NCBI GenBank assembly: GCA_964016885.1
Contig: OZ024753.1
Coordinates: 11,160,001-11,224,000, forward strand
Origin: Eledone cirrhosa
Taxonomy: Eukaryota
Direction of reading: 5' to 3'
Length of the DNA: 64,000 bases
The first letter of the stretch is position 1; every line of letters begins with the position of its first letter. The position numbers and the translations under genes are program-made. This document shows, piece after piece, positions 32,963-48,167 of this stretch. The notes beneath the pieces are model-generated. The model was given only the letters and a program-made list of their open reading frames with translations. It had not been told where the DNA came from and made no database searches.

Positions 32963-33762
32963 GTAATTGATCAAAAGAACATCTATTTTATTAATACTTA
33001 TATTTTAATATTTAATATATATATGAGTATGTATGTATATCTATATGGATATATGTGTATATATATATATATATATATATATATATATATATATATATAT
33101 ATATATATATATATATATGAGTATGTATGTGCATATATATATATATATGAGTATGTATGTGCATATATATATGTATATATATATATATGAGTATGTATGT
33201 ATATATATATATATATATATGAGTATGTATATATATATATGAGTATGTATATATATATATATATATGAGTATGTATGTATGTATATATATATATATATGA
33301 GTATGTATGTATGTATATATACATATATATGAGTATGTATGTATATATATATATATGAGTATGTATATATATATGGATATAAGTGTGTATATATATATGT
33401 ATATATGAGTATGTATGTGCATATATATATATATATATATGAGTATCTATGTGCATATATATGTATGTATATATATATATATATGAGTATGTATGTATAT
33501 ATATATATATATATGAGTATGTATGTATATATATATATATATGAGTATGTATGTATATATATATATATATATATATATATATATATATATATATATATAT
33601 AAGTATGTATGTATGTGTGTATATATATATTCACTGACACTGATATATATTCACTGACACTGATAGCTTGTAAATATGTACATATATGTGCTGACATATA
33701 TTTATCTTTCTATTTGTTTATCTACCTACCCATCTACACCTATCTATCTATCTATCTATCTA

Positions 33763-34156
33763 TCTCTCCGGACAACAATTGATTCCCTTCTTTATGTATC
33801 ACTTTAGAAGGAGAATCAGGGTGGAGAGAGAGGCACTGCACCCCAGTAAATTTACTGAAAGGTGGGTGAATGAAGCGAAAATGGCCCGAGTGATTGGGCC
33901 TTCTCTGTTTATAAGCCTGTAGGTTGAGGAAGAGAGCAAAAGGAAGAAAGGAGCACTTGCACAACACGCTCCTCGAGTTGAGGGTTGTTCTATCGACGGG
34001 GTATTAAACAACCCATTTGTGGCGCCTCCCCCCTATTGGGGATTTCGATTGTTGAAATTGTTTGTTTTTATATTTTTTACACGACTGTATATAAAATCCC
34101 CGGCATGTCTTTGTATTGTCCCCTTTCTTGTTGCGCCCTTGTGGCTAATAAAGAAA
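33763..34156 (+). mobile_element. Old diverged Tx1 3' fragment (copy 0) between (TATC)n tracts
   Basis: Homologous to the ORF2 C-terminus (gaaaggtgggtgaatgaagcgaaaatggcccgagtg); ends gcccttgtggctaataaagaaa-TCTATC. Confidence 0.8.
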
Positions 34157-34606
34157 TCTATCTATCTATCTATCTATCTATCTATCTATCTATCTATCTA
34201 TCTATCTATCTATCTATCTATCTATCTATCTATCTATCTATCTATCTATCTATCTATCTATCTATCTATCTATCTATCTATCTATCTATCTATCTATCTA
34301 TCTATCTATCTATCTATCTATCTATCTATCTATCTATCTATCTATCTATCTATCTATCTATCTATCTATCTATCTATCTATCTATCTATCTATCTATCTA
34401 TCTATCTATCTATCTATCTATCTATCTATCTATCTATCTATCTATCTATCTATCTATCTATCTATCTATCTATCTATCTATCTATCTATCTATCTATCTA
34501 TCTATCTATCTATCTATCTATCTATCTATCTATCTATCTATCTATCTATCTATCTATCTATCTATCTATCTATCTATCTATCTATCTATCTATCTATCTA
34601 TCTATC
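34157..34606. repeat. Pure (TATC)n/(GATA)n tract, ~450 bp
   Basis: Seen directly; further tracts at 33741-33764, 37856-37889, 38733-38875, 39821-39832, 45567-45860, 47933-47945. Confidence 0.97.
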
Positions 34607-46363: not shown

Positions 46364-46381
46364 ACTCCTCCAGTAAGGTGC

Positions 46382-47932
46382 GATCGGCACCTTACTGGAG
46401 GAGTACGAAATGTTGACAGGAGCTAAGCTGAACCGGGACAAGTCGATCGGTTTGCAACTCGGCACGTGGAGGGGCAAACTGATGCCCTCCGATGGCGTCG
46501 TCGGACGCTGGACGGAGGGCCCGGTGAAGTTGCTCGGGGTCTGGTTCGGACCAGACCTCCAGGTGGAGAAGAACTGGGGTGAGGTTACGATCAGGGTGTT
46601 TGCACTGTCCAGAAGTGGGCCAGTTGCAAACTATCCCTGAAAGGTCGGGCGGAGGTGGCGAACACCTATATAGCGTCCGTCATCTACTACTGCCTGACCG
46701 TTGTGCCTTGCCCAAGGGAAACAATCGCCAAGATGGAGCGCGCACTCTTCCAATTCCTTTGGAAGAAGCGGGCTCCTTTGGTGAGGAGATCCAGCTGCTG
46801 TTAACACCCTTCGAAAGGAGGGCTGGGGATGCCGTGGCTAATGATGCGTAAACACGCATTAAGGCTACGGCACCTCCACGTATTCCTCACCGGTCAACCG
46901 GTGTGGGTCCCGTTTGTGAGACGAACCTTTCCCAGACTCGTCTCACTCACCGAGCTGCAATCCTGGGTCAAACAAAGACCGAGAAAACTGGGCCCCTGGC
47001 ACACTGAGTGTGCCCAGGCGCTCACGGCCCTATGGCAGGTGGACCCGATTATCAGTGGAGACTCCACCGCGACATTCTATAGCGGGCTGGTACGCAGCAG
47101 GTGCGACGACGCCCTCGGAGAAGCCCTAGACATGGAGGAGGACGAACTGGCCAGCCTGTTCGGTAGGACATTCAGCCCGGGACCTATGGACAATTTACAG
47201 AAGTACATGGCATGGCAGTGCTTCTGAGGGGCTCTACCCGTTCGAGGAAAGCTCTACAGACACGGGCGCCCGGGTAGGGACCCCGCCAAAAAGATCTGTC
47301 CCAGATGCGTGTGCGACGAGGAAACAGTTGCACACGCATTGGTACACTGCTCGGGCGTAGCCGATCTGTGGGGCTATGTCGAACGACTGCTATCACAGGT
47401 GGGACCGATCCGGTTGACAACCGAGGCCATTTTAACGATCAAGCCGCCTCCCCACTTCAAAAATTAAGGAGATGCGGTGTTTCTGTGCGTAATAGCCATG
47501 GTGAACGCGTCTGAAAGGACTCAGGTCAGGCACCTTACTCTCTGGCCAACAACTGATCCTTCTTCCGATATCACTTCGGAAGAAGGATCAGGATGGAGAG
47601 AGAGATGCTCAACCCCAGTCGTTTTTATGAAAGGTGGGTGAAAGTGGCGAGAATGGCCCGTGTGAATGGGCCTTCTCTCTACATCAGCCTGTAGGTGGAA
47701 AAGAGGAAGGAACGAGGGAGCACCCTCTCTCTGTGCTCCTGAGGAGAAGGGGCTGCACACTTTTTTAGGAGGAGGGTGGGTGGGTGGGGGGACCCTCCCA
47801 ACGCCCCCTCCCTATTGAGGACTTTATTGTTAATTTTATATTTGTTATTTGTTTTCTTTACTCGCCTTTTTGTGTAAACTACCCCCTTGTATTTGTCCCC
47901 TTCTTTTGCGCCCTCGTGGCAATAAATAGAAA
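46382..47932 (+). pseudogene. Tx1 copy 6, degraded 5'-truncated copy
   Basis: Collinear with ~43971-45566 but with frameshifts, stops and small deletions; ends gtggcaataaatagaaa-TCTATCTATCTAT. Confidence 0.9.
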
Positions 47933-48167
47933 TCTATCTATCTATTCACCCACCCATCCCTCCCTCTGTGTCTATATCAGTGTGTACACACTCACCTAAT
48001 AATCATGAATGCTATTATCAATGACATAGTTAAGCAATTTTCGCTGATCACCCATCGATTCCCATCTCGTAATTCATTCCTGAACGAATGAATGAACAAC
48101 GTATATTAATGTCTCATTACATGAGTCTACTTACACTGCCATAAAGTAGCTGGAGCATCCCTTGGAA

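Follow-up and report, generated by a model that had tools for sequence, protein, structure and literature searches.

A stack of seven L1-group LINE copies, probably of the Tx1 clade, whose insertions strongly favour TATC repeats

We report a stack of seven copies of an APE-type LINE of the L1 group, probably belonging to the Tx1 clade, whose insertions strongly favour TATC repeats, likely by way of an endonuclease that cuts at or close to GATA/GATA in the GATA strand. The probability of this reading as a whole is, in our estimate, about 0.78, and within it the position of the nick on the GATA strand and the part played by the endonuclease are deduced from TPRT geometry. The stack lies in a stretch of 64,000 nucleotides (G000:C13:11,160,001-11,224,000), here called the window, of a 3.0-Gb genome. 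Genome-wide, the preference for TATC repeats is strong and leaky, and it is not exclusive.

Organization of the array

A BLAST search of the window with full-length copy 5 (about 39,833-45,566) as the query recovers exactly the seven copies claimed in an earlier note on this DNA, all on the plus strand as claimed there, between 33,765 and 47,934 as assembled (Table 1). The other matches of at least 40 bp are four AAC-repeat matches near base 100-370, beyond the array, and one short minus-strand self-match within copy 7. Copies 2-5 constitute one young subfamily (98.8-99.7% alike), and copies 1, 6 and 7 are 76-85% alike to each other and near that to copy 5 (88.5% for copy 7). As these three are far from copy 5 and from each other, four subfamilies are stacked here. 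The 5' ends of copies 1 to 7 fall at about 5306, 2483, 4891, 4788, 1 (full length), 4998 and 4134 in reference coordinates; no two are equal, in keeping with the claim that the truncation points all differ.

Direct reading of the junctions likewise bears out that six copies have (TATC)n in front of them and six have it behind, without poly(A). The six 5' ends are directly preceded by 6, 112, 8, 35, 3 and 4 units, and at the six 3' ends AATAAA plus 4-7 nt is followed at once by TATC; the short contacts are the 3 units before copy 5 and the 2 units after copy 7. The fusion, previously placed between copies 5 and 6, joins copy 6 to copy 7, numbering from the left (46,361-46,382); there an inverted 18-nt piece of copy 7 abuts copy 6 at a short stretch that is similar in the two. 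Tracts of (TA)6 or longer amount to 10,036 bases of the window, outside the array, and those of (TATC)3 or longer to 936 bases, with all eight runs inside it. The assertion that no copy lies in (TA)n holds within the window and fails genome-wide, where several copies are flanked on either side by pure (TA)n and others sit in minisatellite or unique sites.

Both flanks of the array are short imperfect repeats. To its right (48,180-48,440 and 48,590-48,680) is a dispersed repeat with an internal direct repeat, which we take to resemble octopod SINE-like repeats. Very long degenerate (TA)-rich tracts occupy 14,100-26,800 and 49,400-60,000, with a 200-N gap near 50,040-50,240.

Table 1. Features of the array and of its full-length element, in window coordinates
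Feature	Position	Strand	Remark
Left flank, CATCTACACC + (TATC)6	33731..33764	+	probably left copy of copy 1's target duplication
Copy 1, 5'-truncated, young sister subfamily; ORF2 end and own 3' UTR	33765..34158	+	76% to copy 5; 99.2% to a copy on C3
(TATC)112 spacer	34159..34606	+	
Copy 2, truncated inside endonuclease domain; ORF2 frame open to stop	34607..37855	+	99.66% to copy 5
(TATC)8 spacer	37856..37887	+	
Copy 3, 5'-truncated, 0.85 kb	37888..38732	+	98.8% to copy 5
(TATC)35 spacer	38733..38872	+	
Copy 4, 5'-truncated, 0.95 kb	38876..39820	+	99.5% to copy 5
(TATC)3 spacer	39821..39832	+	
Copy 5, full-length element, 5.73 kb, both ORFs open	39833..45566	+	
ORF1, 595 aa; one CCHC zinc knuckle, Asn-rich and Thr/Pro/Gln-rich stretches	40053..41840	+	
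ORF2, 1145 aa; APE endonuclease, reverse transcriptase, C-terminal zf-RVT	41865..45302	+	
(TATC)40 TA (TATC)26, second CATCTACACC (45,833-45,842), (TATC)4	45567..45858	+	
Copy 6, third subfamily, both ends truncated, 3' UTR broken off	45861..46361	+	84.6% to copy 5; 96.5% to own subfamily
18-nt inverted piece of copy 7's 5' end, at fusion	46364..46381	-	reverse complement of 46,387-46,404
Copy 7, fourth subfamily (probably oldest), stops and indels; then TATC TATC TATT, unique flank	46382..47934	+	88.5% to copy 5

Proteins and affinities of the element

The knuckle of ORF1 has the form CX2CX4HX4C and matches zf-CCHC with E=0.019, below the Pfam cut-off; the nearest Atlas clusters of this protein are also zf-CCHC (0.92). 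ORF2 matches PF03372 and PF00078 above the cut-off and PF13966, in its Cys-rich C-terminal part, below it, and the catalytic motifs were located in its sequence. Its best PDB match is human L1 ORF2p (E=1e-47, residues 8-857), with R2 at 1e-19, a coarse test given that the PDB has few LINE clades. From the combination of APE, RT and zf-RVT domains with human L1 ORF2p as the best solved relative, we infer that the element is an L1-group non-LTR retrotransposon. The family also bears the signature of TPRT, namely 5' truncation with an intact 3' end (69 of 89 copies) and duplications of 9-23 bp (18 of 127).

The element probably belongs to the Tx1 clade, an affinity that we take its architecture and its habit to suggest. 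An ORF1 with a CCHC zinc knuckle is a feature of this clade, and other clades have such knuckles too. No named Tx1 protein was among the matches of the protein searches and the cluster look-up with the element; the Atlas returned generic RT/EN clusters only, and a literature search for a link between ZCCHC3 and Tx1 found nothing. In an RT tree of 34 rows (the query and 33 chosen from the matches, with no labelled Tx1 among them), the element falls within a clade of ten rows, all of them unnamed proteins, and the four plant L1-type rows lie outside it.

Target preference across the genome

Counted over the whole genome by exact match to the 25 terminal bases, the family has 1,961 exact 3' ends, along with 347 exact 5' ends. 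Past three variable end bases, TATCTAT follows in 1,450 of the 1,961 (1,186 + 264), TATATAT in 171 (130 + 41; about 9%), many of which lie in true (TA)n, and other sequence in 340. In 20 fixed 10-kb stretches taken as background, TATCTAT occurs 79 times and TATATAT, about 100 times commoner, 8,140 times; the resulting preference for TATC over TA is about 870-fold per site and 300-2,800-fold per tract, on a background sample of 200 kb that includes just 4 TATC tracts. The target core after the element reads TAT(C>A)TAT, with positions 0-2 past the end being TAT in 88-89 of 90 copies. These counts, with 171 + 340 ends outside TATCTAT, fall short of the all but exclusive targeting of a single site that characterizes Tx1L and R1Bm. 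The earlier idea of GATA-strand-specific nicking survives as a strong TATC bias in a single orientation, and strict specificity has to be dropped from it.

The first 30 loci hinted at a TA-preferring subfamily, which the genome counts (41/305 for the ACT end vs 130/1,316 for the ATA and ACA ends) rule against. Among the copies outside TATC, three on C1 (L141, L142 and L143; 108.72-108.83 Mb) lie in a minisatellite of about 48 bp at TATATTT, two of them with clean 17-bp duplications.

For the 5' side, the sample consisted of the first 90 of 100 listed C1 positions, chosen blind to flank; 89 were resolved, seven with the junction set after moving past an internal break, and as they include cluster neighbours they are not all independent. 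TATC stands upstream in 59 of them (58 with a 2-nt shorter window), TA in 10 and other sequence in 20, set against a background of 0.26% for TATC and 8.5% for TA. TATC in front of a full-length copy may have been brought along by its RNA, for which reason the 69 truncated copies were also tallied separately: 42 have TATC on the 5' side; so do 33 of the 39 copies most like copy 5. Eight of the 20 copies with neither TATC nor TA upstream have TATCTAT downstream, which fits either target deletion or an RNA-borne tail. Most 5' flanks are hence TATC rather than something else and, together with the target duplications, they support the view of the earlier note that TATC is a real target and not a tail alone. 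Conversely, when the first 30 of 8,766 matches to the start of a long TATC tract were examined, 17 tracts adjoined a family member within 13 bp, five more had one within 600 bp and eight had none; of the alignments at long tracts, 171 of 176 are on the TATC strand.

A readable, non-periodic target duplication, starting at the TAT directly after the element, is present in 18 of 127 copies (9-23 bp, median 17), the remaining 109 being without one mainly because they sit in pure repeat. These 18 duplications are preceded by C in 11 cases, A in six and T in one, with no added tail, and the bases left of the junction at the same sites are biased to T-A-T-C (15, 15, 15 and 11 of 18). The 5' junctions have more bases in common with the TATC phase than expected (none shared in 11 of 37 vs 57%). 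With the GATA strand as the presumed TPRT primer, the junction maps to GATA/GATA; as TAT is near-invariant, it may itself be derived from the RNA, in which case the nick could lie up to 3 nt away. Poly(A) is absent from 1,958 of the 1,961 ends. An A run follows the end at three loci only (L250, L328 and L329), the sole poly(A)-tailed copies found, starting 1-4 nt from the 25-base end motif; one of these stands at C/TATAT with a 7-bp duplication, one lies in (TAA)n and one is without a duplication, the latter two being ambiguous in their bearing on target choice, and in one of the three the element end and a T precede the A run.

We also considered that the target might be inherited from the flank of the source copy, and discarded this since the TA-site test gave no lineage signal. 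TA-site copies have a TA-site nearest neighbour at a rate of 0.13 vs 0.20 with shuffled labels (23 TA among 110 copies), and copies that agree at every base over 900 bp are found in TATC as well as in TA sites.

Of 30 full-length ends other than that of copy 5, 29 have TC before the 5' motif. Short 5' extensions common to full-length copies at different loci (L220 and L222; L226, L240, L241 and L247) suggest transcription starting inside the upstream repeat. Recurrent, unrelated-looking sequences also stand directly after TATC tracts (L352, L354, L358, L369, L129, L164 and L165), some with ORF matches about 500 bp further on; these are probably the 5' ends of further sister families.

Independence of the insertions and likely history of the array

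Over 3.2 kb, copy 5 is identical to copies on C21, C11 and C10 and has 11 differences from copy 2; the nearest copies were picked for their likeness to copy 5, which tilts this one comparison towards a close match. Copy 2 differs at four positions from copies on C1 vs 11 from copy 5, and the last 840 bp of copy 3 at four positions from copies elsewhere vs 6-10 from its window mates. Over the same length, copy 4 is one difference away from copy 2 and also one from two copies elsewhere. With copies 2, 3 and 5 nearer to copies elsewhere than to each other, their sequences identify them as independent insertions, and the claim of independent insertion rather than tandem duplication is upheld, with copy 4, one base from copy 2, as a possible exception.

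The 10-mer CATCTACACC occurs in the window only at 33,731 and 45,833 and at no other fetched locus of the genome. On the simplest reading, the CATCTACACC(TATC)n pair would be the target duplication of copy 1, with copies 2-5 having entered the TATC behind copy 1 later. Copy 7 is 91-94% identical to its best relatives (40 scored of 2,862 candidates) and is probably the oldest, copy 6 being presumably younger on the strength of its likeness to its own subfamily. The fusion of copies 6 and 7 is consistent with a subsequent loss of the spacer together with the end of copy 6, the alternative being a single insertion with a template switch.

Elsewhere, a tandem on C3 (G000:C3:217,897,499-217,908,989; L330 + L331) comprises two full-length copies that match base for base over 5,727 bp and have identical spacers, together with the beginning of a third copy; it is either a whole-element tandem duplication or an assembly repeat.

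Proposed mechanism of target choice

We propose the following course of events. At TAT the end of the element meets the target, which is duplicated over 9-23 bp, and poly(A) is lacking, as read from the junctions. A nick on the GATA strand would prime reverse transcription and thereby fix the orientation; the RNA would run past AAUAAA into flanking UAUC, which could pair with the primer, and copying that starts from the last base of the element would account for the lack of poly(A). Each insertion would leave TATC on both sides, such that later copies would find targets beside earlier ones and build head-to-tail arrays. Stacks are common in the family, a relative's 3' end lying no more than 500 bp upstream of 28 of the 89 flank-scored copies. 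The array in the window may have grown from a small imperfect repeat, with the deletion between copies 6 and 7 occurring later at short microhomology.

The endonuclease sets the target for Tx1L (PMC1950540) and for SART1 and TRAS1 (PMC7265360), and RNA pairing is described as helping priming in the I factor, R1Bm and R2Ol (PMC6007223). This second precedent also lends itself to a different division of labour, in which nicking at AT-rich TAT is loose and the UAUC run at the RNA 3' end selects among the nicks by pairing. The near-total lack of poly(A) agrees with such RNA-directed choice, as do the poly(A) copy in (TAA)n and the one in which the element end and a T precede the A run, implying that transcripts enter the flank; moreover, at some unique sites (L083, L127, L133 and L141) the base before TAT equals the last base of the element. 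Yet the TA-site copies form no lineages, identical copies occupy both site types, one poly(A) copy still used C/TATAT, and the T-A-T-C bias left of the junction, though seen at sites mostly in repeats, is in bases unable to pair with the RNA. We therefore regard selection by the RNA as a minority reading, unlikely though worth keeping in view, and, from the lack of TA lineages and the poly(A) copy at C/TATAT, lean to the endonuclease as the main determinant of the target with RNA pairing as a helper. The more sweeping scenario that a poly(A)-less LINE lineage took over the GATA microsatellites of the genome and seeds tracts and arrays, its landing site picked largely by the target copy on its own, reprogrammable RNA end, is one we entertain as a speculation that is probably wrong.

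Two further readings would deny the preference or the stacking altogether. Were TATC a tail written by the element, the TATC at 5' ends would be an earlier neighbour's tail or a product of passive accumulation in tolerant regions; indeed, 28 of the 89 flank-scored copies have a relative's 3' end at most 500 bp upstream, the shared 5' extensions of some full-length copies suggest a carried flank, and the probable duplication of copy 1 implies that some TATC was added. Nevertheless, 61 of the 89 copies are without a relative's end upstream, yet TATC is found there in 58-59 of 89; the 18 readable sites are free of an added tail, the TA-site copies have no C at the junction and the orientation is strict, which together make this account highly improbable. 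Slighter still are the chances that the array arose by local tandem duplication or is an assembly artefact in a low-complexity region. The single base between copies 4 and 2, the Ns and TA-rich tracts of the window and the existence of identical tandem copies on C3 speak for it, but the array combines four subfamilies 76-85% apart with seven different 5' ends and unlike spacers, is thus unlike the C3 pair, and has copies 2, 3 and 5 closest to copies elsewhere.

Comparison with known systems

Microsatellite targeting is a documented habit of the Tx1 clade, and it is the repeat unit alone that would be new. The Tx1 microsatellite targets named in PMC4494074 are TC, TTC, TTCC and TTTC. Kibi and Koshi, of the teleost Tx1 clade, use (TC)n and (TTC)n (Kojima and Fujiwara 2004, as cited in PMC4494074 and PMC3812793); like the present element they are APE-type LINEs that enter a microsatellite in one phase, and they differ in target, TC/TTC as opposed to TATC/GATA. 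The crocodilian elements Tx1-1_Crp, Tx1-5_Crp, Tx1-6_Crp, Tx1-1_Gav and Tx1-2/3/5/8_AMi insert preferentially into a tetranucleotide repeat as well, (TTCC)n or (TTTC)n (PMC4494074), but differ in repeat unit and host, and the element described here has a measurable (TA)n leak. The same source calls an element target-specific when one sequence type makes up >20% of the flanks, a level that TATC exceeds on both sides here (59/89 at 5' ends and 1,450/1,961 at 3' ends).

Other LINEs that target microsatellites, namely Waldo on (ACAY)n and Mino on (AC)n of the R1 clade, Dong on (TAA)n (PMC3812793) and Togen on (TG)n (PMC4640811), belong to other clades, whereas ORF2 here is closest to L1 among solved structures. 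SART1 and TRAS1 of the Bombyx telomeric repeats likewise occupy a short repeat in one orientation and one phase and tolerate related repeats, but are R1-clade, poly(A)-tailed and telomeric (PMC7265360), in contrast to the poly(A)-less, dispersed copies of this family. The Tx1L element of Xenopus has an APE endonuclease with L1-type catalytic residues in common with ours, but its target is a DNA transposon and its hairpin loop has 11 residues, as opposed to nine in our alignment, as in L1 (PMC1950540). L1-Tx1 elements are described as expanded in coleoids (PMC8967140). Our literature search, which reached neither Repbase nor Dfam, found no LINE targeting GATA/TATC.

With the present family, GATA would join the few microsatellites that APE-type LINEs are known to target. 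The family is young, with the high copy number given by the counts of exact 5' and 3' ends. Its members occupy GATA as well as TA sites, fall into several sister subfamilies and in rare cases bear poly(A), a mixture well suited to telling apart, in a natural setting, what recognition by the endonuclease and pairing of the RNA with the primer each contribute to target choice. GATA markers in the host will often lie beside mobile sequence, as they do in 17 of the 30 long tracts sampled. The general view of how LINEs work is unchanged by these findings.

Relatives elsewhere and apparent hybrid copies

Metagenomes contain 71 loci distantly related to the element (21-51% identity). Of these, 43 were scanned for repeats and none had TATC; as most of the contigs do not clearly reach the element ends, the scan is silent on the ancestral target. 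The family itself is present in four other organisms (runs X5-X8), with many relatives at 85-99% in organism B and near-identical pieces at a depth of about 2-10 in organisms C, D and E. As the latter could be contamination, we do not claim horizontal transfer. No RNA run containing the family was listed among the sequencing runs. Within the genome, seven copies (L182, L185, L199, L126, L148, L160 and L178) are apparent recombinants in which a 3' part of the copy 5 subfamily is joined to a 5' part from a sister subfamily (87% overall), a structure that points to template switching or to conversion.
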